Below, one piece after another: positions 4,256 to 31,494 of a stretch of 64,000 nucleotides of DNA. How positions within the stretch are numbered: position 1 is the first letter of the stretch; each line of letters starts with the position of its first letter. The notes under the pieces were generated by a model. The model searched no databases. It saw only the letters and a program-made list of their open reading frames with translations, and was not told the origin of the DNA. The DNA is from Alphaproteobacteria bacterium. GTDB taxonomy: Bacteria; Pseudomonadota; Alphaproteobacteria; UBA828. Location: the NCBI GenBank assembly GCA_965221125.1, contig CBDCRW010000006.1, positions 576,001 to 640,000 of the forward strand, written 5' to 3'. A program made the translations under genes and the position numbers.

Positions 4256-4311
4256 TGAGGGCGGGACGTGCTCCTTGCGCGGGCGGGCCGGCGGGATACT
4301 CTGCAGGGACC

Positions 4312-11335: not shown

Positions 11336-13630
11336 TCAGACGCTGTCGGCGGGCTGAACGAAGCGGTCGATGATCTTCTTGGTGCCGGCCTTCTCGAAGG
11401 CGATCTCGAGCTTGTCGCCGTCGACCGAGCGAATGCGCCCGTAGCCGAACTTCTGGTGGAAGACGCGCTCGCCGGGCGCGTATCCGCCGGACGGCGCTTT
11501 GCCGGCGGCAGGCATGGGCGTCGCGTCGATGACTGGCGGCGTGCGCCGGCTGCGGTATGGCGCGTGCTCGGACATGAGGCGCCGCGCGGAGGCGGCCCCG
11601 CCGTGGCCCCGGTAGAGCCCGCCCGGCGCGGGCTGCATGGCGGTCTCTTCGGCGAGCGTCACGTGATCCTGCGCCAATTCTGCGACGAAGCGCGACGGGA
11701 TCGCGCTCACCCACTGGCCGTGCCGGTGCCGGTTGGCTGCGAAGAGGACGTGCGCGCGGCGCCGCGCGCGGGTGAGCCCGACGTAAGCCAGGCGGCGCTC
11801 CTCCTCCAGGCCGGCGGCGCCGGATTCGTCGAGCGCGAGCTGGTGCGGGAACAGCCCTTCCTCCCACCCCGGCAGGAACACGGTGTCGAACTCCAGGCCC
11901 TTGGCGCCGTGGAGCGTCATGATGTTGACCATCTCTTCCGCGCCGTCGCCTTCACGATCCATGACCAGGCTCACGTGGTCCAGGAAGGCGGCGAGGTCCT
12001 CGAACTCGGTGAGCGCGTCGACCAGCTCCTTCAGGTTCTCGAGCCGGCCGGGTGCGGCGGGCGAGCGGTCCTTTTGCCACATCTCGGTGTAGCCGGACTC
12101 GTCGAGCATCCTGCCCACGATGTCGGCGTGGGGCGTCCCGGAGAGGGCGGCGCGCCAGCCACGGAACTGCCCGACCAGCCGGCTGAGTGCGGTACGGGCC
12201 TGCGGCCTCAACTCGTCGGTCTCGATCAGCCGCTCCGCCGCGCGGCAGAGGGAGATGCCGTCAGCGCGCGCGAGCTGGTGCACGGGGCGCAGCGAGGCCT
12301 CTCCCAGGCTGCGCTTCGGCAGGTTCACGATGCGCTCGAAGGCGAGGTCGTCGTCCGGGCGCACCATGACGCGGATGTAGGCCACGGCGTCCCGGATCTC
12401 CTGGCGCTCGTAGAAGCGCAGGCCGCCGATCACGCGGTAGGGCAGGCCGATGGCGAGGAAGCGTTCCTCGAACGCGCGGGTCTGGAAGCCGGCGCGGACG
12501 AGAATGGCGATGCGGTTGAGGCTCTCGCCGTCGCGCTGCAGCGCCTCGATGGTATCGCCCACGCTGCGGGCTTCCTCGTCGCCGTCCCAGCTCTCGTTGA
12601 TACGGACCTTCTCGCCGTCCTCACCCTCGGTCCAGAGCGTCTTGCCGAGGCGGCCGGCATTGTGGGCGATCAGGCCCGAGGCGGCGGCGAGGATGTGCCC
12701 GGTGGAGCGGTAGTTGCGCTCCAGCCTGATCACCTGCGCGCCGGGGAAATCCTGCTCGAAGCGAAGGATGTTGCCGACCTCCGCGCCCCGCCAGCCGTAG
12801 ATCGACTGATCGTCGTCGCCGACGCAGCAGATACTGTGATGGGTCTGCGCCAGCAGCCTGAGCCAGAGGTACTGGGCGACGTTGGTGTCCTGATACTCGT
12901 CCACCAGCAGGTAGCGGAAGCGCTGCTGGTAGTCGGCGAGCACGTCGCCATGCCTGGTGAAGAGGGTCAGGTTGTGCAGCAGGAGGTCGCCGAAATCGGC
13001 GGCGTTCACGGTGCGCAGCCGCTCCTGATAGGCCGCGTAGAGGGTGGGCGCGCGCCCGTTGGCGTAGTCGGCGCCGTCCGCGCCCGCCACCCTGTCGACG
13101 GTGAGCCCCCGGTCCTTCCAGCGCTGGATGATGACCGAGAGGGTGCGCGCCGGCCAGCGCTTCTCGTCGATGTCGGCCGCCTGGATGATCTGCTTCAGAA
13201 GGCGGACCTGGTCGTCGGTGTCGAGGATGGTGAAGTCCGGTTTCAGCCCGGCGAGCTCGGCGTGGCGGCGCAGGATGCGCGCCGCGATGGCGTGGAAGGT
13301 GCCGAGCCAGAGGCCGGCGGCGGAGCGGCCGATCAGGCGCTCCACGCGGCCGATCATTTCGCGCGCGGCCTTGTTGGTGAAGGTGACGGCGAGCACCTGG
13401 CCGGGGCGGGCGCGGCCGGTGGCGAGAATGTGGGCAAGCCGCGTGGTGAGCACGCGTGTCTTGCCGGTGCCGGCGCCGGCCAGCACGAGCAGGGGGCCGT
13501 CGAGCGCTTCCGCCGCCTGGCGCTGCTCCGGGTTCAGGCCGTCGAGATAGGCCGACGGGGGCATCGGCACCGGCGGGCGGGCATCGGGCCCGGCGGTCGG
13601 GCCGGGCGCGGGATCGAAAAGCTCGTTCAT
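11336..13630 (-). CDS. uvrD: ATP-dependent DNA helicase UvrD/PcrA
   Basis: LAGAGTGKT, VTFTNKAA, VDEYQDTN, VGDDDQSIYGWRGA, NYRST, TLHGAKGLEF, EEERRLAYVGLTRA, and a C-terminal tudor-like domain. Confidence 0.96.
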   Translation of the reverse strand: MNELFDPAPGPTAGPDARPPVPMPPSAYLDGLNPEQRQAAEALDGPLLVLAGAGTGKTRVLTTRLAHILATGRARPGQVLAVTFTNKAAREMIGRVERLIGRSAAGLWLGTFHAIAARILRRHAELAGLKPDFTILDTDDQVRLLKQIIQAADIDEKRWPARTLSVIIQRWKDRGLTVDRVAGADGADYANGRAPTLYAAYQERLRTVNAADFGDLLLHNLTLFTRHGDVLADYQQRFRYLLVDEYQDTNVAQYLWLRLLAQTHHSICCVGDDDQSIYGWRGAEVGNILRFEQDFPGAQVIRLERNYRSTGHILAAASGLIAHNAGRLGKTLWTEGEDGEKVRINESWDGDEEARSVGDTIEALQRDGESLNRIAILVRAGFQTRAFEERFLAIGLPYRVIGGLRFYERQEIRDAVAYIRVMVRPDDDLAFERIVNLPKRSLGEASLRPVHQLARADGISLCRAAERLIETDELRPQARTALSRLVGQFRGWRAALSGTPHADIVGRMLDESGYTEMWQKDRSPAAPGRLENLKELVDALTEFEDLAAFLDHVSLVMDREGDGAEEMVNIMTLHGAKGLEFDTVFLPGWEEGLFPHQLALDESGAAGLEEERRLAYVGLTRARRRAHVLFAANRHRHGQWVSAIPSRFVAELAQDHVTLAEETAMQPAPGGLYRGHGGAASARRLMSEHAPYRSRRTPPVIDATPMPAAGKAPSGGYAPGERVFHQKFGYGRIRSVDGDKLEIAFEKAGTKKIIDRFVQPADSV

Positions 13631-13697
13631 GGGCCACGGTGCGGGAGGATTCGCCCACTATAGCACGGGCGCGGCACGTCTTGCCCGGCCGGGACCC

Positions 13698-14348
13698 TCA
13701 GGCGTCGGCGTCCTTCGTGCGATCGCAGCGCATGCCGAGGCTGTAGCGCTCCACCGTGATGCCGTCGAGGAAGTGGAAGGGCCGGTGCCTGGCCCCGCCG
13801 AAGCCCGGCGCCCGCATCAGGATGCCGTCGCCGGGCCCGGCTTCGAGCACGCGCTTATCCGCGCCGCCGCGGTCGGCGCAGAGACCGAAGCGGCCATCGC
13901 CGCTCAGCTGGACGATCACCACCAGACCGACGTAGCGCACGTGGTCGCGGTGCGGCGTGATGCCGCGCGCGCCGGGCGGGTAGCGCTGCAGGACCAGGTC
14001 GTTGAGGGGCAGCGTCTCCAGTGGCGGCGCGTCCATCGCGGTGAGCGCGTCCGCGACCAGCCGTTCGACGGCTTGCGTGAGCCGCCAGAGCGGGTGCGGC
14101 TCCGGGATCGAGAGGCAGATATCGAAATCCTGGTAGACGGCACGCTCTCCCTCCCCGATGACGGGCTTCGCGCTGCGGAAGGAGAGATCGCCGCCGGATT
14201 CGATGAAGGGCCGGCAGTCCGCACGCGCCAGCAGGGGCAGGACCGCAGCGTCCTCGCGCGCCACGCGATCAAGGGCGGCAGCCATCGCGCCGGGGCCCGC
14301 GCGAAGCGCCGGCAGCGCGGCACGATCGCTGCTCACCACAGCCTCCAC
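13698..14348 (-). CDS. 2OG-Fe(II) oxygenase, AlkB-like superfamily
   Basis: QRYPPG..GITPHRDH (HxD), a distal His (PFHFL) and RYSLGMR. Start uncertain by a few codons. Confidence 0.7.
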   Translation of the reverse strand: MEAVVSSDRAALPALRAGPGAMAAALDRVAREDAAVLPLLARADCRPFIESGGDLSFRSAKPVIGEGERAVYQDFDICLSIPEPHPLWRLTQAVERLVADALTAMDAPPLETLPLNDLVLQRYPPGARGITPHRDHVRYVGLVVIVQLSGDGRFGLCADRGGADKRVLEAGPGDGILMRAPGFGGARHRPFHFLDGITVERYSLGMRCDRTKDADA

Positions 14349-14364
14349 CTCGTCAGCGGACCGG

Positions 14365-14691
14365 TCAGTCGCCGATGGGCGGCGAGCATGGCGCGGGGTT
14401 CATCACCATCACGTCTTGCTCCTGGATCGCGTCCAGCGCCCAGACCGACTGGATGAAGGCCTGCCAGTCAGGATCCGCCGTCATCGCCGCCCGGCGCGTC
14501 TCGCGATCCGCCAGGCTCTCGTAGGCCCAGATCAGGACGATCCGGTTCAGCCGGCCGATCTCCGAGACATAGAGGCCGACGAAGCGGCCGAGATGGCGCT
14601 TCTGAATGGGGAGGCCTTCCGTCTGGTACTTCTTCAGCCAGCCGTCCACCGTGCCGGGGCGGAATGTGTAGGTCCGGTGCTCGACGATCAT
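14365..14691 (-). CDS. NIPSNAP family protein
   Basis: MIVEHRTYTFRPG..SEIGRLNRIVLIWAYESLADRETRRAAM.ADPDW. ATG overlaps the GMC stop. Confidence 0.9.
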   Translation of the reverse strand: MIVEHRTYTFRPGTVDGWLKKYQTEGLPIQKRHLGRFVGLYVSEIGRLNRIVLIWAYESLADRETRRAAMTADPDWQAFIQSVWALDAIQEQDVMVMNPAPCSPPIGD

Positions 14692-16346
14692 TGCGGGACT
14701 CCTTCCGATGGTGCGTGCGCTTCGTCGCTGCCGGCGACGAACTGGGCGGCCTTCTCGCCGATCATGATGGCCGGCGCGTTGGTGTTGCCGCTCGTGATGA
14801 CGGGCATGACGGAGGCATCGGCGACCCTGAGCCCGGCGATGCCGTGGACCGCGAGCCTCGCGTCCACCACCGCCATCGGGTCGGTGCCCATGCGGCAGGT
14901 GCCGACAGGGTGGAAGGTCGTCATCGCGTTGGCGCGGAGCCAGGCCGTGAGCTCGGCGTCGCTCTGCAGCGCATCGCCCGGCGCAAGCTCGCGCCCGCGA
15001 TAGGCGGCGAAGGCCGGCTGCGCGATCACCTCGCGCACCATGCGGATGCCGGCCACGGTCGTGCGGCAGTCGGCCTCGTCCTCCAGGTAGTTGGGCTGGA
15101 TCAGCGCCGGCGCGGCGGGATCGGCGGAGCGGAGCCCGATCCAGCCCCGGCTCTCGGGCACGATGGGGCCGACGCGCAGGGTGAAGCCGTGGGTCTCCTC
15201 CAGCGGGGTCTTCCTGAGCGGATTGGGGATGTGGAGGTTCGCCGTGCTCTCCAGCGCGGGCATGAAGTGTACCTGGATGTCCGGCGCCAGCAGGTCCGGC
15301 CGGGTCTTGAGGAAGGCCCCCGCCTCGTAGGGGAAGGTGGTGGCGATGCCGCGGCCAAACAGCAACCCAGCCGCCACCGAGCGGACCATCCTGTCGACCC
15401 GAAGCTCGCGGTAGAGGGTGATCGGCTCGGTGCAGGTGTAGGCGATGACGCAGTCCACGTGGTCCTGGAGGTTGCGGCCGACGCCGGGGAGCTCGTGGAT
15501 CACCGGGATGCCGTGCCGCTTCAGCTCGTCGCCCGGCCCGATCCCGGAGAGCATGAGGAGCTGCGGCGTGTTGACCGTGCCGCCGCAGAGGATGACCTCG
15601 CGCGCCGCATGGACGGTGCGCGCACCGGCCCCCTCTGCCACCTCGACGCCGGTCGCGCGGCCGCCCTCGACCACGACGCGGCGCACGAGGCAGCCGGTGA
15701 GGATCGTCAGGTTGCGCCGGTGCCGGACCGGGCGCAGGAAGGCGACGGACGTGGAGCAGCGCCTGCCCCGCCTGATGGTGAAGTCGTAGCGCCCGAAACC
15801 TTCCTGCTCCGCCCCGTTGAAGTCGTCGTTGACGGGCCAGCCGGCCTGGGCGCCCGCCTCGAGGAAGGTGTCGAACAGCGGATTGGTCCCGCGCGCACGA
15901 CATACCGTGAGCGCGCCGCCGGTCCCGTGATAGGCATCGTCGCGCTCGACATGCCCTTCAGAGCGACGGAAGGCCGGCAGCACGTCGTCGTAGGACCAGC
16001 CGGCAAGACCCATCTGCGCCCAGCGGTCGTAGTCGTGGCGGTTGCCACGCACATAGACCATGCCGTTGATGGTGGACGAGCCGCCGAGCACCTTGCCGCG
16101 CGGCCAGTAGAGCGAGCGGCCGCCCAGGCCCGGCACCGGCTCGGTGTGGTAGCGCCAGTTGTAGATGCCGGAGTGGAAGAGCCTGCCCATCAGCATGGGG
16201 AGCTGGAAGAGCGGATTGCGGTCCCTGCCGCCGGCCTCGATGAGGAGGACGGAACACCCGGAATCGGCGGACAGCCTGTTGGCGAGCACGCATCCCGCCG
16301 AGCCCGCGCCAACGATGACGTAATCGCAGGAGCGCGCGCGCGGCAT
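14688..16346 (-). CDS. GMC oxidoreductase (choline dehydrogenase-like)
   Basis: DYVIVGAGSAGCVLANRLS, WPRGKVLGGSSTINGM, VGRNLQDH, FHPVGTCRMG, GNTNAPAIMIGEK. Confidence 0.93.
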   Translation of the reverse strand: MPRARSCDYVIVGAGSAGCVLANRLSADSGCSVLLIEAGGRDRNPLFQLPMLMGRLFHSGIYNWRYHTEPVPGLGGRSLYWPRGKVLGGSSTINGMVYVRGNRHDYDRWAQMGLAGWSYDDVLPAFRRSEGHVERDDAYHGTGGALTVCRARGTNPLFDTFLEAGAQAGWPVNDDFNGAEQEGFGRYDFTIRRGRRCSTSVAFLRPVRHRRNLTILTGCLVRRVVVEGGRATGVEVAEGAGARTVHAAREVILCGGTVNTPQLLMLSGIGPGDELKRHGIPVIHELPGVGRNLQDHVDCVIAYTCTEPITLYRELRVDRMVRSVAAGLLFGRGIATTFPYEAGAFLKTRPDLLAPDIQVHFMPALESTANLHIPNPLRKTPLEETHGFTLRVGPIVPESRGWIGLRSADPAAPALIQPNYLEDEADCRTTVAGIRMVREVIAQPAFAAYRGRELAPGDALQSDAELTAWLRANAMTTFHPVGTCRMGTDPMAVVDARLAVHGIAGLRVADASVMPVITSGNTNAPAIMIGEKAAQFVAGSDEAHAPSEGVPQ

Positions 16347-16349
16347 CGC

Positions 16350-17204
16350 CTACCAGTCCACCGCCACCGCGCCCATCGCCCCGAGTCGCCGGTTGCAGAG
16401 CATGAACGGATTCTCCAATGCGAGGAACGCGTCGGCCTCGGCCGGGTGCGGACGCAGGATGACGCGCTCTGCGGTGGCCGCATCCGATGCGCCCAGGCCT
16501 GCCACGGCCAGGGTCTCCGCCGCCGCATCGCCGAAGCCCATGAGGACGACCGGCGTTCCCCGCCCGGCCAGATGCTCGATCACCCGGATCATCAGGGGGC
16601 GCCAGAGCGGCAGGTGGCCCCTCCGCTGGTGGGTATCGACCGCGCGCTGGAAGCGCGAGAGCGAGAGCGACGAATTGAGCAGCAGCACGCCGGACGCGAC
16701 CCAGCGGTCGGCCAGCGCTTCGGGTGCCTCCAGGTCGACCGCGCCGGCTTCGATGGCGGCGAGCGTCGCCGGCCAGTCGGCGAAGCGCCGGGCATACCGG
16801 GCTTCGCCGGTGCGCGCGGCGATGATCGCCTGGATGAAGGCGCGGACGCTGGGCGAGAACATCTTGTCGAGCTCCCGCCACTGCGCGACGTTGCCGGCCT
16901 CGAAGGCCCGGCCGGTGGCGAAGGCTGGGCAGGGATAGGGGTCCTGGCCCAGGATCACGCAGCGCACGTCCTCCGGCGCGATTCCGTCGAAGGCGCGGAG
17001 CATGTGGGTGCCCGCCGGCGCGCCGGGAAAGACGGCGCCGCGCCGGGCTGGGAAGATCGGCTCCCAGGGCTCGATCTCGAGCGTGGGGTCCACGTCCCCG
17101 TAGGCCAACGCAACGCCTCGGACGACGTCGCGCCAGGCAGGCTCGACATCCTCCTGCCAGCCTCGCAGCGTGTCCCTCAGCGCCGATCTCAATCGCTTCG
17201 CCAT
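16350..17204 (-). CDS. Atypical uracil-DNA glycosylase family-1-like protein
   Basis: VRCVILGQDPYP, ATGRAF, SPSV, WVASGVLLLNSSLS, GH..W, RPHPA, NPF..CN..L....VDW appear in UNG motif order. Confidence 0.8.
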   Translation of the reverse strand: MAKRLRSALRDTLRGWQEDVEPAWRDVVRGVALAYGDVDPTLEIEPWEPIFPARRGAVFPGAPAGTHMLRAFDGIAPEDVRCVILGQDPYPCPAFATGRAFEAGNVAQWRELDKMFSPSVRAFIQAIIAARTGEARYARRFADWPATLAAIEAGAVDLEAPEALADRWVASGVLLLNSSLSLSRFQRAVDTHQRRGHLPLWRPLMIRVIEHLAGRGTPVVLMGFGDAAAETLAVAGLGASDAATAERVILRPHPAEADAFLALENPFMLCNRRLGAMGAVAVDW

Positions 17205-17230
17205 GGCGCCAGCTTGTCCCTCGGCTCACG

Positions 17231-17298
17231 AGAAAACCAGACGTGCGCGTCACGTTTTCTTGGAGCGTAGTGCGTTTCCTCTTCACACGGAAACGCAC
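17231..17298. promoter_or_regulatory. Two inverted repeats upstream of the UNG-like operon
   Basis: AGAAAAC(17231)...GTTTTCT(17260) and perfect GTGCGTTTCC-N9-GGAAACGCAC (17270-17298). Confidence 0.5.
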
Positions 17299-17367
17299 CA
17301 GGATTTTATCGCTCACGGCAGCTGGCCGTCTTGCGATTCCGCGCGCCTGCCGGCGCGACGGGAGGGA

Positions 17368-18267
17368 TCAGGCGGCGAAGCGGACCAGCGCCTCCTGCAG
17401 GTGCTCCGCCATGGCCCGCGCAGCCAGCGTCGGCAGGCGGTCCGACGGCGCGATCAGGCTCAGCCGCAGGCGGGACAGCCGCTCGTCCGCGAGCGGCACC
17501 GCGACCAGGCGCCCGCTGGCCAGCTCCTCCGTGAATCCCATGCGCGTGTAGAACGCGACGCCCGCGCCCTGAAGCAGGAGGTGCTTCAGCGCAGCCAGCG
17601 TGTTGGAGATCACGGCCGGCTCGTGCGCGCGCTTGAAGGCGTCCATCTCGGGGCCGAAGAAGGCCTGCATCGAGCTCGAGCTGTCCTGATAGAGCAGCCG
17701 GCTCGTGCCGCAGTCATCTAGCGTCAGCGCGGATCGCGCCGCCAGCGCGTGGTCCGGGCGCATGATGGCGTGCATCGGGCAGGGAATGTCGTGTACCACC
17801 GTGATGCCGCCTTGCCGCGTCGGCGAGAAGGTGAGCCCGAGATCAGCGTTGCCCTGGCCGATGGAGTGCATGATCTCCATGGGATCGCAGGCCACGACCC
17901 GGATCTGCACCGCCGGATGGTCGGCGATGAAGCGCCCGGCCGCGTCGGGCAGAAAGTGAACGGTCAGGCTGTCCAGGGTGGCGATGGTCACGACGCCGCT
18001 GAGCACGCCGCGCAGCTGGTCGATCTCGCCCCGCAGCCGGGTGAAGTCGTGCAGCGTCGCCTGCGCGTGGCGCAGCACGAGGCGCCCGGCATCGGTGAGC
18101 CGCATGCCATCGGGTCGCCGTTCGAACAGCGGCGTGCCGAAGTAGTCCTCGATCTTAAGGATCTGCCGGTTGACGGCGGAGGGCGAAATGTGGAGGCGCT
18201 CCGACGCGCGGCGGATCGATCCGTCCTCCGCCACCGCCTCGAAGTAGCGCAGCACCGCCGCGTGCAT
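17368..18267 (-). CDS. LysR-family transcriptional regulator
   Basis: LRYFEAVAEDGSIRRASERLHISPSAVNRQILKIEDYFGTPLFER HTH; 299 aa. Confidence 0.95.
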   Translation of the reverse strand: MHAAVLRYFEAVAEDGSIRRASERLHISPSAVNRQILKIEDYFGTPLFERRPDGMRLTDAGRLVLRHAQATLHDFTRLRGEIDQLRGVLSGVVTIATLDSLTVHFLPDAAGRFIADHPAVQIRVVACDPMEIMHSIGQGNADLGLTFSPTRQGGITVVHDIPCPMHAIMRPDHALAARSALTLDDCGTSRLLYQDSSSSMQAFFGPEMDAFKRAHEPAVISNTLAALKHLLLQGAGVAFYTRMGFTEELASGRLVAVPLADERLSRLRLSLIAPSDRLPTLAARAMAEHLQEALVRFAA

Positions 18268-24833: not shown

Positions 24834-24856
24834 TGTGTTGCTCGATTTGCAACGCA
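24834..24856. promoter_or_regulatory. LysR-type recognition box in a divergent promoter
   Basis: TGTGTTGC-N7-GCAACGCA, a T-N11-A dyad, lies between the divergent SBP and oxygenase genes. Confidence 0.6.
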
Positions 24857-24948
24857 ACGCGCGCAAAGAATCGCGCCATAATTGTGGCGAACGGAACATG
24901 GCGCGGCCCGCCTGCGGCACCGGCCGGGCGGCACCAGGGGGAGCGATC

Positions 24949-25956
24949 ATGACTGAGGCAAGAGCGGATCGCGCGCATGTGGCGGCGTTCGACGAAGTGC
25001 CGCAGATCGACATCGGGCCGCTGTTTCGGGGCGACGAGCGGGCGCGGCGGGGCGTGGGCGATGCGGTGCGCGATGCCTGCCGCGACGTGGGCTTCTTCTA
25101 CATCCGCAACCACGGCATTGCGCAGGCGACCATCGACGATCTGTTCGCGCAGATGGCGCGCTTCTTCGCCCTGCCGGAGGACGCGAAGCGCGAAATCCAC
25201 GCGAGCAAGTCGCGGTGCTTCCGCGGCTACTCCGGGCTCTTCGAGGAGCGGCACGACGCTGCGACCGACTACTACGAGCCGCACGAGGTGATCGACTTCG
25301 GCCGCGAGAACCAGCCCGACGACCCGCCGGAATGCGCGGCGAGCCTGCTCTACGGCCCCAACCTCTGGCCATCGGAGCCGCCGGCGCTGCGCCGGGCAGT
25401 GGAGGCCTACTACGCGGCCATGGTCGAGGTCTCGAACGCGCTGCTCCGCGCCTTCGCGCTCGCCCTGGCGTTGCCGGAGGCGTACTTCCTCGACAAGTTC
25501 GACCGTGCCGCAGGCGCGCTCAGGCTCCTGCACTACCCGCCGCAGGCTCCGGACGAGAGACGGCTCGGCGTCGGCGCGCATACCGACTACGAGATGTTCA
25601 CGATCCTGGCGCAGGAGGCCACGCCCGGCCTCCAGGTCCTGAACGGCGCGGGCGCCTGGATCGACGTTCCGCCGGTCGCGGGCACCTTCGTGGTCAATAT
25701 CGGCGACCTCATGGCGCGCTGGACCAACGACCGTTTCACCTCGAACATCCACCGCGCCGCCAACCGCACCGCCCGCCACCGCTACTCCATCCCCTTCTTC
25801 ATGGGGGCCAACGTCGACACCGAGATCCGCTGCCTCGCGAGCTGCACCGGGCCGGACGAGCCGCCAAGGTATCCGCCGGTGCTGGCGGGCGCGCATATCG
25901 AGGCCCGGCTGCTCGAGCTGCAGCACGCCCTGGTGGAGGCCAAGAGCGCGGACTGA
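24949..25956 (+). CDS. Isopenicillin-N-synthase-family 2OG-Fe(II) dioxygenase
   Basis: VPQIDI, GFFYIRNHGI, GPNLWP, LRLLHYPP, GAHTDY, VVNIGD..ARWTND, HR, RYSIPFF. Confidence 0.93.
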   Translation: MTEARADRAHVAAFDEVPQIDIGPLFRGDERARRGVGDAVRDACRDVGFFYIRNHGIAQATIDDLFAQMARFFALPEDAKREIHASKSRCFRGYSGLFEERHDAATDYYEPHEVIDFGRENQPDDPPECAASLLYGPNLWPSEPPALRRAVEAYYAAMVEVSNALLRAFALALALPEAYFLDKFDRAAGALRLLHYPPQAPDERRLGVGAHTDYEMFTILAQEATPGLQVLNGAGAWIDVPPVAGTFVVNIGDLMARWTNDRFTSNIHRAANRTARHRYSIPFFMGANVDTEIRCLASCTGPDEPPRYPPVLAGAHIEARLLELQHALVEAKSAD

Positions 25957-26007
25957 GACCGTTCCGCGTCAGCGACAGCCCTGCGGCAGCGGGATACCGT
26001 TGTTTCA

Positions 26008-26076
26008 TTGACACCGCCCGCTCCCACGGTTTCAAATGGTCGCGACCCCGTGCCCGAATTACTGGACACGCGTGTC
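26008..26076 (+). promoter_or_regulatory. Putative promoter and palindromic operator of the PotABCD-like operon
   Basis: TTGACA at 26008-26013, a weak -10 (TCAAAT), and perfect palindrome GACACGCGTGTC at 26065-26076. Confidence 0.45.
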
Positions 26077-26228
26077 AGGAGTGAGGGGCCGCTGTCGGGT
26101 ATCGGCGAGGTCGTCTCGCGCCGGATGGCGCCGACGGCGATCCTCACCGCCCGGCCAGACGGCCGCCCCGTTTCGCAGGAGGGCGCAACGCGCAGCCATT
26201 CGACCACCGACGCGGCAAGGAGGCTCCG

Positions 26229-27398
26229 ATGAGAGACAGCGACAAGCGGAAGAAATCCGATCGTACCGGGTTCAAGATCAACCGGCGGACCCTGTTGAAG
26301 GGAGGCGCGGCGGCCGCAGGTGTCGCGGCGGCCGGCTCGCTCACGATTTTCTCGCGCACGGCGCGCGCCGCCGACACGCTGCGGGTGCTGTGCTGGCCGG
26401 GCTACGAAGAGAAGAACGTGATCCAGGAGTTCGAGGACACGCACGGCGTCAAGGTCGAGTTCAAGATCTACATCGGCGGCGAGCAGATGCTCCAGTTCTT
26501 CAACCAGACGCCGCGCGGGACCTACGACAACGTGCTGGCGGACGCCGAGTACATCCGCAAGCTCGCGGCCATCGACGCGATCGAGCCCTACAACCCGGGC
26601 GAGGTCACCGAGCTCGCCAACTACCACCCGAAGTTCAACGACATGCACCAGGTGCAGGCCGGCGACGGCATGGTCTGGGGCACGCCGACGCGCTTCAGCT
26701 TCTACGCCATCTCCTACAACTCGGACCACATGAGCTTCGAGGAGAGCGGCGACTGGAACTCGCTGTTCCTGCCCAAGTTCCAGGGCAAGATCGGCATCTT
26801 CGACTGGTACCTGCCGAACATGGGCAACGCGAGCCTCGCGGTGCATCCCAACAAGGAGAACCCCTACGACCTGACCGACGACCAGCTCGGCGCGGTCCGC
26901 GACTGGCTGCTGAAGCTCAGGCCCCAGGTCAACATGTTCGGCTCCAGCGCCCAGCCCATCGTGCAGGCGATGATCAACGGCGACGTCGTCGCAGGGATGA
27001 TCGGCGACCTCGACATCGACCTGAAGCTCGCCGGCTACACCAACATGGAATCGACGATCCCGGTGCAGGGCGGCATCCGCTGGCAGGAAGTGGCCACCAT
27101 GTGCAAGCAGAGCGAGAACAAGGAGCTCGCGCTGGAGTGGATCAAGTACATGAGCCAGGCCCACGTGCAGGCCAAGCTGGCCTACACCAAGGCGTTCAAG
27201 GCCCGTGGCCCCAATCTCAAGATCGCCGAGCACTGGGACGATGAGCAGAACCAGCTCATGGGCTACTATCCCGATCCCAACAACTCCAGCCAGATGTGGG
27301 TGGAGACGCTGATCGACCGCAGCGTCGGCCGCGATCTTCCCGTGCAGCAGGACGAGAAGGCTTGGATCGATATCTTCAACGAGTTCAAGACGGGCTAG
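26229..27398 (+). CDS. PotD/PotF-like ABC substrate-binding protein with Tat signal
   Basis: NRRTLLK Tat motif, LRVLCWPGY, FEDTHGVKV, DWNSLF.PKFQGKI. Confidence 0.88.
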   Translation: MRDSDKRKKSDRTGFKINRRTLLKGGAAAAGVAAAGSLTIFSRTARAADTLRVLCWPGYEEKNVIQEFEDTHGVKVEFKIYIGGEQMLQFFNQTPRGTYDNVLADAEYIRKLAAIDAIEPYNPGEVTELANYHPKFNDMHQVQAGDGMVWGTPTRFSFYAISYNSDHMSFEESGDWNSLFLPKFQGKIGIFDWYLPNMGNASLAVHPNKENPYDLTDDQLGAVRDWLLKLRPQVNMFGSSAQPIVQAMINGDVVAGMIGDLDIDLKLAGYTNMESTIPVQGGIRWQEVATMCKQSENKELALEWIKYMSQAHVQAKLAYTKAFKARGPNLKIAEHWDDEQNQLMGYYPDPNNSSQMWVETLIDRSVGRDLPVQQDEKAWIDIFNEFKTG

Positions 27399-27421
27399 AT
27401 CGCCGCAGCCCGTCGTGCACC

Positions 27422-27463
27422 GAGCGGGCGGCGCGCCGCCGCGGCGGCGCGTCGGCCCCGCTC
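27422..27463 (+). other. GC-rich intercistronic stem-loop after the SBP gene
   Basis: GAGCGGG...CCCGCTC encloses CGCGCCGCC-GC-GGCGGCGCG. This position is typical for mRNA-stabilising hairpins in ABC operons. Confidence 0.4.
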
Positions 27464-27493
27464 CGCACCCGCTCCGCGCGAGCCTGACGAGCG

Positions 27494-28627
27494 ATGGCGC
27501 ATGAAGCAGGGAGCGCGGTAGCGGGCGGCGCGGTCGCCGACCTCGAGGTGCGCGGCATCGCCAAGCGCTTCGGCTCGGTGGTCGCCATCGAGCGTGTCGA
27601 CATCGACGTCCAGCGCGGCGAGTTCGTCGCCATCATGGGGCCGAGCGGCTGCGGCAAGACAACGCTGCTCCGCATCATCGCAGGGCTGGAGAGGGCGGAC
27701 GCAGGCACGCTGCTGCTGCGCGGCGACGACATCGGCGACGTGCCGGTGCACAAGCGCAGCACCCGGCTTATCTGGCAGGACTACTCGCTCTTCCCCTTCC
27801 TCAACGTCCGCAAGAACATCGAGTTCGGGCTGACGCTCAAGCGCCACGACAAGAAGGAGGTGCGGCGGAAGGTCGAAGCCGTGGCGGAGCAGGTTCACCT
27901 GACCCCTCTGCTCGCGCGCCGCATCGGCCAGTTGAGCGGCGGCGAGAAGCAGCGGGTCGCCATCGCCCGGGCGCTCGTCACCGAGCCGGAGATCCTGCTT
28001 CTCGACGAGCCGCTCAGCTCGCTCGACGCGCACCTGCGGATCAAGGTGCAGAGCGAGCTCACGGTGCTGCAGCGCGAGCTCGGAATCTCCTTCATCTACG
28101 TCACCCACAACCAGAGCGAAGCCTTCGCCATGGCGGACCGGGTGGTGGTCATGAACAAGGGCGTCGTCGAGCAGGTCGGTCGGCCGGCCGAGATCTACAA
28201 TCGGCCGGAAACCCACTTCGTCGCCGAGTTCGTGGGCGCGAACAACATTTTCGAGGGCCGGCTCTCGGAGGTGGCGGGCGGCGCGGTGGTCGTCGACTGC
28301 AGCCACGGCGCGGTCCGCATCGCCGGGCACGGGAGCGATCTAGAGCGGGGTGCTGCTGTCGAACTGGTGGTGCAGGCGGACAAGCTGCGCCGCCGCCAGG
28401 ACGGCGACGATGGCCGGAACACGATCCGGGCGGTCCTGAAGGGCCGCGAGTTCACCGGCTCGCAAGTGATCTACTACCTGGAGACCGCGCAGGGCGTCGA
28501 GGTCAAGATGGTCCTGCAGGAGCCCTTCACCGAGGGCGAAGGGACCGAGATCAACTCCGAGATGGAGCTTTGCTGGGCGCCCGAGGACACCGTCATCCTC
28601 GGGCACCGGGATGCGGACCAGCCGTGA
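27494..28627 (+). CDS. PotA-like ABC ATP-binding protein
   Basis: GPSGCGKTT, LSGGEKQRVAIARAL, LLLDEPL, YVTHNQSEA, and a TOBE-like C-terminus. Confidence 0.94.
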   Translation: MAHEAGSAVAGGAVADLEVRGIAKRFGSVVAIERVDIDVQRGEFVAIMGPSGCGKTTLLRIIAGLERADAGTLLLRGDDIGDVPVHKRSTRLIWQDYSLFPFLNVRKNIEFGLTLKRHDKKEVRRKVEAVAEQVHLTPLLARRIGQLSGGEKQRVAIARALVTEPEILLLDEPLSSLDAHLRIKVQSELTVLQRELGISFIYVTHNQSEAFAMADRVVVMNKGVVEQVGRPAEIYNRPETHFVAEFVGANNIFEGRLSEVAGGAVVVDCSHGAVRIAGHGSDLERGAAVELVVQADKLRRRQDGDDGRNTIRAVLKGREFTGSQVIYYLETAQGVEVKMVLQEPFTEGEGTEINSEMELCWAPEDTVILGHRDADQP

Positions 28628-28666
28628 GCCGGGCTCGCGCAGCGCCCCGCCGGTGACGAGGGCCCC

Positions 28667-29575
28667 GTGACCGACGGCAGCGTGATTCCCCCGTCCAACA
28701 GGAGCCCGCTCAAGCTCGCCTTCCTCGCGCCACCGGCCGGCTACTACGCGATCTTCTTCATCGCGCCCCTGGCCTTCCTCGTCGTTCTCGGCTTCTGGAT
28801 CGTGCGCGACTACCAGATCGTCGCCGAGTTCTCGGTCGGCAACTACGTCGACATCTTCTCCCAGTTCTTCAGCCGCTCGCGCTTCGGCTGGGCGCTGATC
28901 CAGTCGGTCTACATCGCGGTGACCACCAGCGTGTTCGCCGTGATCTTCTGCTACTTCCTGGCGATGGGGATCGTCTTCTGCGTGCCTGAGCGCTATCAGC
29001 GGCTCTTCCTCGTGCTCGCGATCCTGCCGTTCTGGAGCAGCTACATCCTGCGGCTTTTCGCCTGGCAGCTGATCCTGGCGCAGAAGGGGGTGCTCAACTA
29101 CGTCCTCGGCGGGCTCGGCCTCGACGATCCCCTGATCATCACGAACACGCAGATCGGCACGCGCATCGGCCTGATCCACTACCTCTCGCCGATCCTGATC
29201 ATCATCCTCTACATCACGCTCATCAACGTGAACCGGAACCTGATCGAGGCGGCGCGCGAGCTGGGCGCCACGCGCCTGCAGGCGTTCTGGCGCGTCATCG
29301 TGCCGCTCAGCCGGCTCGGACTGACGTTCGCCTTCGGCTTCGGCGTGATCGTGAGCTTCGGCGACGTGCTTTCCGGCCTGCTCGTCGGCGGCGGGATCGG
29401 GCAGTCCTTCCTCGGCTCGTATCCGCTCTACTCCAACATGATCATGGCCGACTACAACAGCTACACCAACCTGCCCCGCACGGCCGCGCTAGCGACGGTC
29501 ATGGTCGTCATCATGGTGGTGATGCTGGTGGTCGCCTACCGCATGGCCGACCACGCCAGAGAGCGGCTGGCCTGA
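28667..29575 (+). CDS. PotB-like ABC permease
   Basis: Multi-TM; LPFWSSYILR and EAA loop LIEAARELGA. Confidence 0.92.
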   Translation: MTDGSVIPPSNRSPLKLAFLAPPAGYYAIFFIAPLAFLVVLGFWIVRDYQIVAEFSVGNYVDIFSQFFSRSRFGWALIQSVYIAVTTSVFAVIFCYFLAMGIVFCVPERYQRLFLVLAILPFWSSYILRLFAWQLILAQKGVLNYVLGGLGLDDPLIITNTQIGTRIGLIHYLSPILIIILYITLINVNRNLIEAARELGATRLQAFWRVIVPLSRLGLTFAFGFGVIVSFGDVLSGLLVGGGIGQSFLGSYPLYSNMIMADYNSYTNLPRTAALATVMVVIMVVMLVVAYRMADHARERLA

Positions 29576-29577
29576 CG

Positions 29578-30396
29578 ATGGGCCGGTTCAACCTCTACGT
29601 CCGCGACAACGGCTACCGCATCGCAGGGCGGGTCTACCTCTTTCTCGGCTTCATCTTCCTGCTGCTGCCGATCGCCTTCCTGATCCTCTTCTCGTTCCAG
29701 AAGAACGTCTATTCTTCGCTCCCGCTCCAGGGCTGGTCCATGCAGTGGTACGACAAGCTGGTCGACGACGGCGTCCTCTTCGATGCGCTGCTGAACAGCC
29801 TCTACGTCTCGCCCATCGCGGCGACGGCGGCCTCGATCATCGGCTTCCTCGCGGCCTATGCGATCAACCGCTTCGTCTTTCCCGGCCGCCTGCTGATGGC
29901 GACGATCCTGATCCTGCCGATCCTGATACCGCCGCTGATCCTGGGCGTCTCGCTGCTGGGCCTGCTGTCGCGCCTCGGGCTGCACGGCCAGCTCTACAGC
30001 ATCATCATCGCGCACACGCTGCTGCTGACCGCGCCCGCCATGGCGATCATCCAGCTTCGCCTCGCCCAGATGCCGCCCGCGCTGGAGGAGGCCGCCTGGG
30101 ACCTCGGCGCGAACGAGCTTCAGACCGTCTGGCGCGTGGTGCTGCCCTGGGCGCTGCCCGGCATCGCCGGCGGCTGGCTGCTGGCGTTCACCTTCTCGTT
30201 CGACGAGTTCATCATCGCCTGGTTCGTCTCGGGCTTCGACCAGACGCTGCCGGTCGCCGTCTACAACGTGATGATCGCCTCGCACGACCCCTCGCTGAAC
30301 GCGATCGGGACGATCGTGTTCGGCCTGCTGCTGCTGGCCCTGCTCGGGGCCGAGCTGCTGATCATTCCGCTCTTCATGAGGCGCCGCACCGCCTGA
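29578..30396 (+). CDS. PotC-like ABC permease
   Basis: Multi-TM; LEEAAWDLGA, LAFTFSFDEF, QTLPV. Confidence 0.92.
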   Translation: MGRFNLYVRDNGYRIAGRVYLFLGFIFLLLPIAFLILFSFQKNVYSSLPLQGWSMQWYDKLVDDGVLFDALLNSLYVSPIAATAASIIGFLAAYAINRFVFPGRLLMATILILPILIPPLILGVSLLGLLSRLGLHGQLYSIIIAHTLLLTAPAMAIIQLRLAQMPPALEEAAWDLGANELQTVWRVVLPWALPGIAGGWLLAFTFSFDEFIIAWFVSGFDQTLPVAVYNVMIASHDPSLNAIGTIVFGLLLLALLGAELLIIPLFMRRRTA

Positions 30397-30426
30397 GCGC
30401 GCCGCGGGCCAGGGAAGGAACGTGCC

Positions 30427-30942
30427 ATGGACAAGACGGACTACATGCAGCGCGCCATCGACCTCGCGCGCGAGAAGATGAACGAGGGCACCGGCTACTG
30501 GCCGTACGGCTGCGTCATCGTCAAGGACGGCGAGATCGTGGGCGAGGGCTGCAACGACATGGGTTTCTCGCTGGATCCCACGGGCCACGGCGAGATCGTG
30601 GCTCTCCGCGACGCCTGCAAGCGGCTCGGCACCATGGACCTCACCGGCTGCGAGCTCTACACCAGTTGCGAGCCCTGTTCGCTCTGCTCCAGCGCGATCT
30701 GGCTGACGAACATCGCCAAGGTCTATTACGGCGCCTCGCTGGAGGATTGCCGCGGACACGGCTCGGACTTCGACCCGCTGCGCCGCGACGTCGCCAAGCC
30801 GATCCACGAGCGGAGCATCCCGGCCGAGCGCGTCCTCGGCGAGCAGGGGAGCGCCCTGCTGGCGGAGTGGGCTGAAATGATCAGGACCGATCCGGCGATG
30901 CAGGAGCAGCGCAGCCGGGCCGCCCCCATCGGCGAGCGCTAG
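30427..30942 (+). CDS. Nucleoside/nucleobase deaminase (cytidine-deaminase fold, GuaD-like)
   Basis: PYGCVIVKDGEI, DPTGHGEIVALR, LYTSCEPCSLC (HxE...PCxxC Zn motif). Confidence 0.9.
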   Translation: MDKTDYMQRAIDLAREKMNEGTGYWPYGCVIVKDGEIVGEGCNDMGFSLDPTGHGEIVALRDACKRLGTMDLTGCELYTSCEPCSLCSSAIWLTNIAKVYYGASLEDCRGHGSDFDPLRRDVAKPIHERSIPAERVLGEQGSALLAEWAEMIRTDPAMQEQRSRAAPIGER

Positions 30943-30986
30943 GCGGGGTCGGGCGGGCGTCGCGGACGAGCGGCCGGAGGGCGATC

Positions 30987-31400: not shown

Positions 31401-31494
31401 GCGTGGTCAGGCGCGCCGATTGGCCGCCGGTGGCCGCGGCCCTATAGTCCCGCCGCCGCCGCGCACGCGGCAGACGTTCCGGGAGGAGGTGCGG

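Follow-up and report, generated by a model that had tools for sequence, protein, structure and literature searches.

The gene at 16350..17204 on the minus strand of the window (the whole 64,000-nucleotide stretch of DNA that was analysed) begins with ATG and encodes a 284-amino acid protein with a family-1 uracil-DNA glycosylase (UNG) fold and a uracil pocket formed by Q87, D88, Y90, F101, N177 and H253. Our preferred explanation, in which we have reasonable but by no means full confidence, is that this UNG-like protein is a catalytically intact member of a UNG sister family that was recruited from DNA repair into the catabolism of imported pyrimidines. Because the DNA-probing loop is lost and, in hundreds of bacterial species, the gene heads an operon for pyrimidine-nucleoside uptake and breakdown, a small molecule rather than DNA is the probable source of the uracil that the enzyme removes.

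To our knowledge, every UDG-superfamily protein characterised so far has a nucleic acid as its substrate, and no paper was found that links a UDG with GMC and NIPSNAP proteins or that describes the UNG-like operon. If the explanation is correct and a UDG member works on a free metabolite, the chemistry known for this textbook repair fold would become broader. A gap in the picture of bacterial pyrimidine-nucleoside catabolism would also be filled for the carriers of these genes, namely rhizobia, marine Paracoccaceae, Variovorax and MAGs of the window's clade. Such genes on Sinorhizobium megaplasmids, which are currently named 'uracil-DNA glycosylase', would need to be re-annotated (no UNG-like copy was found on pSymA of S. 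meliloti 1021). Finally, the enzyme could possibly be useful as a Ugi-insensitive, uracil-specific glycosidase.

The UNG-like protein and its family

As originally predicted, the translation and the alignments contain the family-1 UNG motifs in order, with the catalytic Asp, Asn and His positions retained. The motifs are G86-Q-D88-P-Y90-P91, A96-T-G-R-A-F101, S117-P-S119-V and G172-V-L-L-L-N177, followed in the C-terminal half of the protein by G196-H197..W201, H253-P-A-E-A-D258 and N265-P-F..N271..L274..D283-W284. In an alignment of 52 diverse family members (28-69% identity), N177, F101, G86 and P89 are invariant, and D88, Y90, H253 and S119 are at least 90% conserved. In the alignment, S119 falls at the Ser of the DNA-pinching motif PPS, an observation that counts against the small-molecule reading.

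Several regions differ from those of ordinary Ung. The sixth residue of motif A is Pro instead of His (GQDPYP for GQDPYH), both in the window protein and in the majority of its family. The Leu-intercalation loop, which is HPSPLSAxRGF in five ordinary Ung proteins, is HPAE----ADAF in the window protein. This alignment confirms the reported change from HPSPLS to HPAEAD with no intercalating Leu; the loop is four residues shorter and the Ser residues are replaced by Ala, Glu or Asp. The stretch following HP varies in length and sequence and is not conserved across the 52 members. The insertion that had been noticed between the PS motif and GVLLLN is also present (residues about 131-165), and it is about 31 residues long rather than 35. 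The other changes are an N-terminal insertion, seven residues after ATGRAFE.G, seven residues after LT, and GFGDAA in place of the WG(S/A)HA of ordinary Ung (GS to GD). The pI of the 52 members ranges from 4.8 to 11.1, and neither it nor the net charge is informative on DNA binding. Domain fusions give no hint of function either: family members of greater length are fused to GMC fragments or a MoCo-binding domain as chimeras, or they have N-terminal extensions that have no Pfam match.

The homology to family-1 UNGs is well above what chance would give, and the standard family models recognise the protein only at low scores. The NCBIfam ung models (TIGR00628, NF003588-92) give E values of about 1e-17 and 51-65 bits against cut-offs of 143-237, which is below the equivalog threshold, and TIGR00628 gives 30-37 bits on both UNG-like copies in a search of the genome. 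The Pfam UDG model PF03167 scores 14.5 bits (E 0.037) on the window protein, below the gathering cut-off of 24.3, and 19.8 bits on its paralogue. The original prediction had proposed comparing a predicted structure with Ung. The AF2 model (pLDDT 95.5) has a family-1 UNG fold in this comparison, as the best 50 Foldseek matches are all family-1 UNGs (probability 1.00, TM 0.62-0.74 normalised to the target). Judged by this model, membership in the UDG superfamily is clear at the fold level despite the sub-threshold Pfam score.

When a family profile was run on a sample of 401 genomes of the phylum, only the two copies in G000 and a match in G666 exceeded 300 bits. Matches in a further 34 genomes reach 58-70 bits, cover part of the profile and are in open frames of about 220-345 amino acids, as would be expected of ordinary Ung. 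The UNG-like protein belongs to a distinct family, which a wide score gap sets apart from ordinary Ung. Relatives occupy at least about 500 stretches in a one-genome-per-species collection, a count in which ordinary Ung is not separated.

The operon, its neighbours and its control

Three genes follow the UNG-like gene on the minus strand of the window. A GMC flavoprotein oxidoreductase (14688..16346, 552 amino acids) starts 3 nt past the UNG-like stop, a NIPSNAP dimeric alpha+beta-barrel protein (14365..14691, 108 amino acids; PF07978, E 1.5e-30) overlaps the GMC stop by 4 nt, and ORF216 (13698..14348, 216 amino acids), which has a 2OG-Fe(II) oxygenase fold, begins 16 nt after NIPSNAP. This is the gene layout that had been described. 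The next gene downstream, a UvrD/Rep-type helicase (11336..13630, minus strand), is not a conserved companion of the module. A LysR-family regulator (17368..18267) is encoded upstream on that strand and is common only to the window and locus L006.

The original prediction named random neighbourhoods of the homologues as evidence against itself. Instead, the neighbourhood is conserved across 80 species loci from Alpha-, Beta- and Gammaproteobacteria (51-88% identity), which were gathered with a 10-row family alignment. Neighbour counts take in only those loci with enough flank. The GMC gene comes immediately after the UNG-like gene in 74 of 78 loci, with a median gap of 8 nt, and NIPSNAP follows GMC in 71 of 77, in agreement with the view that the UNG-like gene heads a conserved small-molecule operon. 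A Bmp/PnrA-type SBP is present in 68/74 loci, an ABC ATPase in 66/70 and a divergent RutR-like TetR regulator in 70/78. No further conserved neighbours were found among the 80 loci, and no defence or mobile genes are conserved beside the UNG-like gene.

Some loci display other patterns. For example, an IU-nucleoside hydrolase (PF01156) is present in 16 of 67 loci, a pyrimidine-nucleoside phosphorylase replaces NIPSNAP in L039, and the triad of UNG-like, GMC and NIPSNAP genes is accompanied in L083 and L084 by an NCS1 permease, a TonB receptor and a luciferase-like monooxygenase. The pyrimidine nucleoside context that had been proposed thus rests on the Bmp/PnrA ABC transporter, on the RutR-like repressor and its boxes, and sometimes on a nucleoside hydrolase, a phosphorylase or an NCS1 permease. 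The UNG-like gene is solitary in 3 of 78 loci (L022, L030 and L055) and L011 lacks the GMC gene, both of which count against the small-molecule reading. Distant family members (27-47% identity) adjoin other GMC subfamilies in 3 of the 11 loci examined. The gene order is GMC-Dabb-UNGlike with 4-nt overlaps in the distant locus L133 and GMC-UNGlike-GDPD-PNP_UDP in L124.

The window triad is a second copy and has no transporter or regulator of its own; a complete operon is located on contig C5 of the same genome, which therefore has two triad copies. Three other UDG-superfamily genes in this genome are above the Pfam cut-off, and these serve repair.

ORF216 had been called an AlkB-like 2OG oxygenase and had been given a part in the pathway. 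The 2OG fold is real, and residues H133, D135, H192 and R201 are invariant. The AlkB likeness is only partly borne out because the best Foldseek matches of the model (pLDDT 89.6) are prolyl-4-hydroxylases (2e-8), with ABH2 and ALKBH5/6 further down. ORF216 has no Pfam match, even at E 5, and PF13532 is carried by 3 of 120 of its homologues among those listed. Its part in the pathway is not supported: among the 80 loci it is beside the triad only in the window and L006. A THI5/NMT1 transporter near the triad is likewise common only to these two.

A second gene cluster (24835..32493, plus strand) encodes a DIOX-type 2OG oxygenase, an SBP_bac_8 ABC transporter, a CDA-type deaminase, a glyoxalase and a PfkB kinase. 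The DIOX-type enzymes are the family of thymine dioxygenase (5c3p, E 8e-35). The first seven genes, that is, those without the PfkB kinase, have orthologues with 82-96% identity at L008, L011 and L014. These orthologues are directly divergent from the UNG-like gene, the deaminase cluster in L008 and L014 and its 2OG oxygenase in L011; in the window, a 7.4-kb block separates the cluster from the UNG-like gene. Co-occurrence with GMC, NIPSNAP, THI5 or deaminase genes had been suggested as a check, and it holds for GMC and NIPSNAP and, in the three relatives, for the CDA-type deaminase cluster, but THI5 recurs only in L006.

The GMC protein has both of its expected domains, PF00732 (E 4.5e-61) and PF05199 (E 9.1e-38). 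It reaches the cut-off of the broad PRK02106 subfamily (677 vs 605) but misses that of BetA proper (583 vs 732). Its nearest solved relatives oxidise primary alcohols and include choline dehydrogenase/oxidase, chloramphenicol oxidoreductase and alcohol oxidases; it also resembles the aryl/primary-alcohol oxidases HMF oxidase and pyridoxine 4-oxidase. A complex prediction for GMC and NIPSNAP with the UNG-like protein as partner scored 0.00, which says nothing either way.

The divergent TetR regulator matches TIGR03613 (E 1.2e-49) and the YcdC-like C-terminal domain PF08362 (E 5e-42), and its 169 bits are below the RutR equivalog (TIGR03613) cut-off of 368. The RutR-box consensus and its uracil-sensitive binding are those given for E. 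coli RutR in PMC2475637. RutR-box-like palindromes with at most four mismatches are present in 62 of the 79 sequence windows upstream of the UNG-like gene vs 444 of 4271 control windows, and those with at most two mismatches in 20/79 vs 6/4271. The copy in our stretch has no adjacent RutR-like regulator and a single degenerate box. This palindrome (17235..17253, minus strand), common to the window and L006, is 31-49 nt upstream of the UNG-like start; in a hand comparison it agrees with the operator-like box of the full operons at 15 of 19 positions, and it scores as a weak terminator-like hairpin as well. BmpA, the relative closest to the SBP among those with a solved structure, binds thymidine with no detectable uridine binding (PMC13325309), and other relatives bind bases or atrazine. 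Both observations count against the small-molecule reading.

A proposed pathway and its alternatives

The original idea of a UNG fold repurposed as a small-molecule N-glycosidase agrees with the operon and its pyrimidine context, and its links to the 2OG enzyme ORF216 and to THI5/NMT1 are not supported. The scheme that we infer would be as follows; the inference covers the type of substrate, the sequence of the reactions, what NIPSNAP does and the identification of uracil as inducer. A uracil-bearing nucleoside or nucleoside-like compound would be taken up by the Bmp/PnrA-type ABC transporter or, in some lineages, by an NCS1 permease or an SBP_bac_8 ABC system instead. The UNG-like enzyme would bind uracil by its ring, using the conserved UNG pocket, and hydrolyse the N-glycosidic bond of the free molecule, with an Asp-activated water making the attack and His stabilising the leaving uracil. 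The translationally coupled GMC enzyme would oxidise an alcohol of the sugar moiety, either after the cleavage or before it, in which case it would make the true substrate. The NIPSNAP barrel may handle the sugar product, e.g., as a mutarotase or isomerase, and the uracil set free would probably be the ligand to which the divergent RutR-like TetR responds by releasing its repression.

Two further observations count against the scheme. A nucleoside hydrolase or phosphorylase is already present in some of the operons, which would make a simple uridine hydrolase superfluous in them. Furthermore, the GMC enzyme is nearer to primary-alcohol oxidases than to anomeric sugar oxidases, and therefore oxidation of the sugar after cleavage fits less well than oxidation of the 5'-CH2OH. 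In its fullest form, to which we give about an even chance, the proposal is that the UNG-like, GMC and NIPSNAP proteins form an undescribed oxidative pathway for a pyrimidine nucleoside. The UDG-superfamily enzyme would be the first whose substrate is a free small molecule, perhaps a compound of the deoxyuridine or uridine type or a GMC-oxidised derivative, its uracil would feed a RutR-type switch, and the cassette would have moved between Bmp ABC, NCS1 and SBP_bac_8 ABC systems.

It is unlikely that the protein is still a uracil glycosylase of DNA or oligonucleotides, Ugi-insensitive and preferring ssDNA like the Nitratifractor salsuginis UNG or BdiUng, and under RutR-type control because nucleoside import and turnover raise dUTP and uracil incorporation. 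The closest solved and characterised relatives (N. salsuginis UNG and ordinary Ung) are DNA glycosylases, which counts against the small-molecule reading, and the catalytic and uracil-pocket residues are all kept, together with S119 of the PS motif. BdiUng acts on ssDNA without a classical motif B (PMC5449639), and so a glycosylase can remain active after losing the Leu loop. In the window, the gene is two genes upstream of UvrD and near a 2OG oxygenase with AlkB-like relatives, but this UvrD/ORF216 neighbourhood is found only there and in L006. Repair would also leave unexplained the coupling to GMC at 3-8 nt (74/78 loci) and the presence of unrelated GMC subfamilies in the distant clades. 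Besides its two triads, the genome has three other UDG genes, and in the UNG-like protein a shorter acidic stretch has replaced the Leu loop and the phosphate-binding Ser residues.

A shade less probable again is that the UNG fold binds or cleaves a non-classical uracil derivative (one with a non-sugar group on N1, a C- or O-linked pyrimidine glycoside or an oxidised pyrimidine), or that it serves as a uracil-recognising partner of GMC rather than as an independent hydrolase. The SBP relatives that bind free bases or atrazine and not nucleosides, the resemblance of GMC to HMF oxidase and pyridoxine 4-oxidase, the hydrolase or phosphorylase already in some operons, and the DIOX-type oxygenases that adjoin the L011 gene and are nearby in the window would all fit such a derivative. 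However, both the Asp that activates the water and the His that serves the leaving group are conserved, which is what an N-glycosidase would be expected to show, and so is Y90, whose equivalent Tyr in UNG excludes 5-substituted uracils.

An anti-phage glycosylase of the Brig1/Brig2 kind, which would excise modified bases from phage DNA, is very improbable and was rejected, for although there are UDG homologues that have taken on a defence role (bioRxiv 10.1101/2025.10.29.685425) and the DNA-contact loops of the UNG-like protein are divergent, PADLOC (2023 library) gives 0 matches for all four proteins, the metabolic neighbourhood is conserved across 80 species, the G+C of 0.70 at the UNG-like locus is the same as in the rest of the window, and the uracil pocket is unmodified.

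Comparison with known systems

Brig1 and Brig2 (bioRxiv 10.1101/2025.10.29.685425) resemble the UNG-like protein in being UDG-fold proteins that have been repurposed away from repair. Unlike it, they act on DNA and occur in defence or mobile contexts, whereas the UNG-like context is metabolic.

The control region resembles that of the E. coli RutR regulon (rutR-rutABCDEFG). The palindromes agree with TTGACCAnnTGGTCAA in 10-13 of its 14 positions, a level of agreement also seen at genuine E. coli sites (PMC2475637), the divergent TetR is of the YcdC/RutR type, and a luciferase-like (RutA-type) gene is beside the regulator in L083 and L084. However, the genes under the regulator of the UNG operon are not rutA-G.

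The IU-nucleoside hydrolases and the pyrimidine-nucleoside phosphorylases cleave free pyrimidine nucleosides and, as indicated above, share some of the operons, but their folds are unrelated to that of the UNG-like protein and so is their chemistry (Ca2+-dependent ribohydrolase and phosphorolysis, respectively). Their presence beside the UNG-like gene suggests a different substrate for the UNG-like enzyme.

BdiUng (Blr0248) of Bradyrhizobium diazoefficiens is Ugi-insensitive and has a broadened substrate range, according to PMC5449639. Its motifs there (GQDPA, YVMVN and VGT) differ from those of the UNG-like protein, and its overall fold is closer to family 4. Membership in a BdiUng-type group was rejected on the motifs and on the absence of 5GN2, 5GN3, 5GNW and 5GRK among the PDB matches checked (45 at E up to 1 for the protein and 59 at E up to 1e-5 for the family profile).

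The N. salsuginis UNG (PDB 5x3g/5x3h) is the best PDB match both by sequence (phmmer, 5x3g, E 4.7e-11) and by fold (E 1.6e-11), and it has in common with the UNG-like protein a helical insertion between the PS motif and GVLLLN. It reportedly excises uracil from DNA and resists Ugi. The alignment with it ends at residue 226 for the single sequence and at position 262 of 287 for the profile, leaving the C-terminal end unmatched, and its family-profile score of 86 bits is no better than those of B. subtilis and E. coli Ung (95-100 bits).

Finally, the family-1 Ung proteins (TIGR00628) have the same fold, motif order, uracil pocket and catalytic Asp, His and Asn as the UNG-like protein, and the same C-terminal NPF..N..L..G..IxW. 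The UNG-like protein differs from them in its low identity (18-26% in the Foldseek structural alignments and 26-30% in the sequence alignment), in its N-terminal and four internal insertions, including the one of about 31 residues, and in having no HPSPLS Leu loop, and its gene is located in a transporter/oxidoreductase operon rather than alone.

The UNG-like protein and its family

The UNG-like gene (window 17204..16350, reverse strand) begins with an ATG and encodes 284 amino acids. All of the family-1 UNG motifs named in the original prediction can be read in the translation in canonical order: G86-Q-D-P-Y-P91, A96-T-G-R-A-F101, S117-P-S119-V, G172-V-L-L-L-N177, G196-H..W201, H253-P-A-E-A-D258 and N265-P-F..N271..L274..D-W284. 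Profile and sequence matches indicate that the homology to family-1 UNG is far above chance and that the protein is not an ordinary Ung. The five NCBIfam ung equivalog models match it with E-values of 1e-13 to 1e-17 (51-65 bits, with cut-offs of 143-237), Pfam UDG scores 14.5 bits against a cut-off of 24.3, and a phmmer search of the PDB finds 5x3g (4.7e-11) and Mycobacterium tuberculosis Ung (1.3e-10). A predicted structure, as had been proposed for comparison, agrees with the fold: the AlphaFold2 model, built on 52 family members (mean pLDDT 95.5, pTM 0.93), has family-1 UNGs as all of its best 50 Foldseek matches in the PDB, the top one being 5x3g, 'WT UNG from Nitratifractor salsuginis'.

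The protein was aligned with five ordinary Ung proteins from proteobacterial genomes. Against these it has an N-terminal insertion, GQDPYP in place of GQDPYH, ATGRAFExG with seven more residues in place of AHGLxFSV, SPS in place of PPS with S119 retained, seven additional residues after LT, and GFGDAA in place of WG(S/A)HA. The predicted insertion of about 35 amino acids is present and has a length of about 31 in this alignment. The loop HPSPLSAxRGF becomes HPAE----ADAF, which is four residues shorter and has Ala, Glu and Asp at the Ser positions; the loss of its Leu, read earlier from the sequence, is seen here as well. The uracil pocket and catalytic residues are intact and of the UNG type, and the DNA-intercalation loop is lost.

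In a family alignment of 52 members (28-69% identity), W16, W24, P52, G86, P89, G98, F101, G172, N177, H197, W201, P254, L274 and W284 are invariant and D88, Y90, T97, E102, S119, W144 and H253 are at least 90% conserved; the residues after HP differ in both length and sequence. Selection thus acts on the uracil pocket and on both catalytic residues, Asp and His, and not on the minor-groove loop. A library of 50%-identity representatives has 853 clusters at E<=1e-3, 210 at E<=1e-10 and 77 at E<=1e-30, the strong ones mostly 275-300 amino acids long and covering residues 1-284. In a 401-genome sample of the phylum, full-length scores of the family profile exceed 300 bits in just two genomes, that of the window, with two copies, and one more. 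A further 34 genomes have partial matches to the profile at 58-70 bits, and the open frames concerned are about 220-345 amino acids long, as expected of ordinary Ung. The gene is present in three of the 301 genomes of a class sample.

The conserved operon and its variants

The window's genome (4.58 Mb in seven contigs, 92% complete, 5.8% contamination) contains a second, complete copy of the operon on another contig, C5 (C5:83380-84228, with a UNG-like protein 74% identical to the window copy; locus L003, 7570-15027). Its order is a divergent RutR-like TetR gene, UNG-like, GMC, NIPSNAP, a Bmp/PnrA-type substrate-binding protein (SBP), a double ABC ATPase and permeases. Two copies, L012 and L018, likewise occur in another metagenome-assembled genome (MAG), JAJEEP01. 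Three other UDG genes in the window's genome are above the Pfam cut-off, and the genome has no ordinary ung. An unrelated HhH-GPD base-excision glycosylase gene lies 11 kb from the UNG-like gene (4255-4995; PF00730, E 5e-22).

A tblastn scan of one genome per species (E<=1e-3) gave at least 509 stretches encoding a relative, a count that is not split from ordinary Ung. Neighborhoods were compared in the best 80 of these (51-88% identical), which belong to MAGs of Alphaproteobacteria, Gammaproteobacteria and Pseudomonadales and to Mesorhizobium, Rhizobium, Ensifer, Shinella, Hoeflea, Brucella (formerly Ochrobactrum) species, Paracoccaceae and Variovorax. Counting only loci with sufficient flank, GMC directly follows the UNG-like gene in 74 of 78, with a median tblastn gap of 8 nt, and NIPSNAP is present in 71 of 77, so that the co-occurrence expected for these two genes holds. 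The Bmp SBP (68/74), the ABC ATPase (66/70) and the divergent TetR (70/78) are present as well, and an IU-nucleoside hydrolase occurs somewhere in 16 of 67 loci. Clustering of all called ORFs gave no further conserved neighbors besides two transporter permeases, with a GC3-filtered calling that may miss small or atypical genes. The conserved operon combines a RutR-like switch and a nucleoside-type transporter with a GMC enzyme and an alpha+beta barrel. It also lies on pSymA-type megaplasmids of Sinorhizobium meliloti, which make up 31 of the 36 plasmid records with a match; there the gene is named 'uracil-DNA glycosylase' wherever the record is annotated; the pSymA of strain 1021 is without it. 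On plasmid CP130046.1 the gene is at 830653-831501, and pSymA of strain AK57 reads TetR, UDG, GMC, NIPSNAP, BMP SBP, ABC, permeases, nucleoside hydrolase, amidohydrolase. The AK57 annotation has the GMC and transporter genes in fragments.

Exceptions to this pattern are informative. For example, two Pseudomonadales MAGs (L083 and L084) are without the Bmp system and have a TonB-dependent receptor after the UNG-like, GMC and NIPSNAP triad, followed by an NCS1 'cytosine/purine/uracil' permease (L083) or an amidohydrolase (L084); beyond their RutR-like gene is a luciferase-like monooxygenase, the family to which RutA belongs. L039 has a pyrimidine-nucleoside phosphorylase in NIPSNAP's place, L016 and L019 are without NIPSNAP, L011 is without the GMC gene, and the UNG-like gene is solitary in L022, L030 and L055. 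A contig labelled Lacunisphaera (Verrucomicrobiota; L054) carries a UNG-like gene near-identical to that of a Devosia MAG (L044) with the same isolate-name prefix (end branches of 0.034 and 0.0056 in a quick ML tree), which looks like a binning error rather than transfer.

In the window, the spacing originally described was borne out: 3 nt separate the UNG-like gene from the GMC start, GMC and NIPSNAP overlap by 4 nt, and 16 nt lead to a 216-codon ORF (ORF216). The quick ML tree (82 rows, none dropped) groups the window copy and L006 with L007 (SH-aLRT 98), which has the full Bmp operon, and the C5 paralogue with L012 and L013 (SH-aLRT 99). Because of this grouping and a single degenerate palindrome remaining upstream, the window copy is a derived triad whose own transporter and RutR-like gene are missing. 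In three Rhodospirillales MAGs (L008, L011 and L014), the triad locus lies immediately next to, and is divergent from, orthologues (82-96% identical) of a window cluster at 24835-31400, which encodes a DIOX_N/2OG-FeII_Oxy oxygenase, an SBP_bac_8 ABC transporter, a CDA-type deaminase and a glyoxalase. The last three adjoin the triad in L008 and L014, and a DIOX-type 2OG oxygenase and an SBP lie beside the UNG-like gene in L011. The suggested deaminase link is seen in L008 and L014. In the window the triad and the cluster are also divergent, but a 7.4-kb block (LysR, ferredoxin, enoyl-CoA hydratase, CoA-transferase, FAD oxidoreductase and an NMT1-type ABC transporter) lies between them; it is shared only by L006, and the proposed association with THI5/NMT1-type transporters is not supported. 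The best PDB match of the cluster's oxygenase is ethylene/succinate-forming enzyme (1e-60), with thymine dioxygenase at 8e-35. A PfkB kinase gene follows (31420-32493), then a luciferase-like monooxygenase on the other strand (stretch 24835-33608).

The regulator and the partner proteins

The operon's TetR protein has a YcdC-like C-terminal domain (PF08362, E 5e-42), and of the NCBIfam models RutR fits it best (TIGR03613, E 1.2e-49), with a score of 169 bits that falls short of the cut-off of 368. In the E. coli study, RutR is presented as a uracil-sensitive repressor of pyrimidine catabolism with the consensus TTGACCAnnTGGTCAA, and genuine sites among those listed in its Table 1 match 7 to 13 of 14 consensus positions (PMC2475637). 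We sought this E. coli consensus in the 270 nt that precede the UNG-like gene, with control windows from the same loci. With up to four mismatches it is present at 62 of 79 loci and in 444 of 4271 control windows; with up to two, at 20 of 79 and in 6 of 4271. In the MAG clade closest to the window, its place is taken by two related palindromes of the TGAC-N-GTCA type. The degenerate palindrome upstream of the window gene (17235-17253) matches the L010 box at 15 of 19 positions by hand comparison and also scores as a weak terminator-like hairpin.

The GMC enzyme has complete N- and C-terminal GMC domains and scores above the broad 'choline dehydrogenase' subfamily cut-off and below that of BetA. 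Among solved structures an O2-dependent choline dehydrogenase is closest to it (1.5e-138); other near relatives are a chloramphenicol-oxidising enzyme, alcohol oxidases, fatty-acid photodecarboxylase, choline oxidase, pyridoxine 4-oxidase, aryl-alcohol oxidase and HMF oxidase, with glucose oxidases far weaker. These nearest relatives point to oxidation of a primary alcohol. The nearest solved relative of the Bmp SBP is Borrelia burgdorferi BmpA (1.4e-20), and PnrA and an atrazine-binding protein are among the others. The BmpA study reports binding of thymidine, then cytidine and adenosine, with undetectable binding of uridine (PMC13325309).

ORF216 (13698..14348, reverse strand), predicted to be an AlkB-like 2OG oxygenase, matches no Pfam family up to E 5 and has 299 homologues, nearly all unnamed; PF13532 occurs in 3 of the 120 listed, one named AlkB by its source. 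By its modelled fold (pLDDT 89.6) it is a 2OG-Fe(II) oxygenase, with H133, D135, H192 and R201 invariant. That part of the prediction stands, but prolyl-4-hydroxylases are the best match (2e-8), PHD2 and a Burkholderia 2OG oxygenase come next, and ABH2 and ALKBH5/6 rank lower. Because it accompanies the triad only in the window and L006, ORF216 is outside the conserved module. Its gene is directly upstream of a UvrD-type helicase gene, the two spanning 11336-14348. Sequencing runs labelled sponge metagenome contain part of 13600-17400 (best share 0.58), and no RNA run covers it among the runs listed.

Possible functions and known systems

The UNG-like protein is rather likely to be a glycosidase that acts on a small molecule in the catabolism of pyrimidine nucleosides; less confidence attaches to any one order of the steps than to this general statement. 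Its substrate would be a free compound that bears uracil, either a nucleoside or nucleotide-like, whose N-glycosidic bond the enzyme would hydrolyse, and uracil would be the inducer. The GMC enzyme may oxidise the sugar, either as the released pentose, with NIPSNAP perhaps a mutarotase, or, ahead of cleavage, at the nucleoside's 5'-CH2OH. UNG-type hydrolysis inverts the anomeric center, and L-rhamnose mutarotase is a barrel protein of NIPSNAP's kind and size. A substrate of the 2'-deoxyuridine type is attractive, given that IU-nucleoside hydrolases require a 2'-OH and deoxyuridine residues are the natural UNG target; in L039, the phosphorylase would make such cleavage redundant.

The intact pocket would also suit a glycosylase that acts on DNA or oligonucleotides and is under pyrimidine control, which we consider unlikely in view of the distant relatives. 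Members of 35-42% identity served as seeds for a metagenome scan, which gave 80 loci. The eight that are at least 56% identical to the window protein repeat, within the extent of their contigs, the context of RutR-like, GMC, NIPSNAP and Bmp genes, and 18 others (27-47% identity) have no tblastn match to the window's neighbor genes. Pfam searches of selected neighbors in 11 of these 18 found a GMC domain adjoining the UNG-like gene in three: GMC-Dabb-UNG-like with 4-nt overlaps (L133, 4918-7855), GMC-like, UNG-like, GDPD and a PNP_UDP_1 phosphorylase (L124, 599-6759), and UNG-like, gluconate-2-dehydrogenase subunit 3 and GMC (L127, 258-3601). Other neighbors are amidohydrolases (three), GDPD (two), a histidine phosphatase and a GIY-YIG nuclease, and four of the 11 loci have unrelated ones. 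The pairing of UNG-like proteins with GMC enzymes of different subfamilies and an alpha+beta barrel of NIPSNAP's superfamily thus recurs at depth, and a repair function explains this poorly. The context of the three loci (35-42% identity), which also includes large amidohydrolases, is possibly a related but different pathway. Next comes an enzyme for a uracil derivative, or a partner of the GMC enzyme, with a substrate that is not a nucleoside; this is also improbable. Phage defence of the Brig1/Brig2 kind is very improbable given the metabolic context, the ordinary G+C and the absence of a PADLOC match.

The protein can be compared with known UNGs. Its family shares a middle insertion with N. 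salsuginis UNG, and the family profile scores 95-100 bits with B. subtilis and E. coli Ung and 86 bits with N. salsuginis UNG, so the family is a sister of family 1 rather than a sub-branch of the N. salsuginis type. Nor is it the BdiUng family, which is described with GQDPA and YVMVN motifs and a family-4-like fold (PMC5449639) and whose PDB entries are absent among the matches listed for protein and profile. A full-text search, mostly of literature outside subscription journals, found no description of the family or operon. As far as this literature goes, the proposed role is unreported for the UDG superfamily; the fold is a known one, and so is the type of operon.
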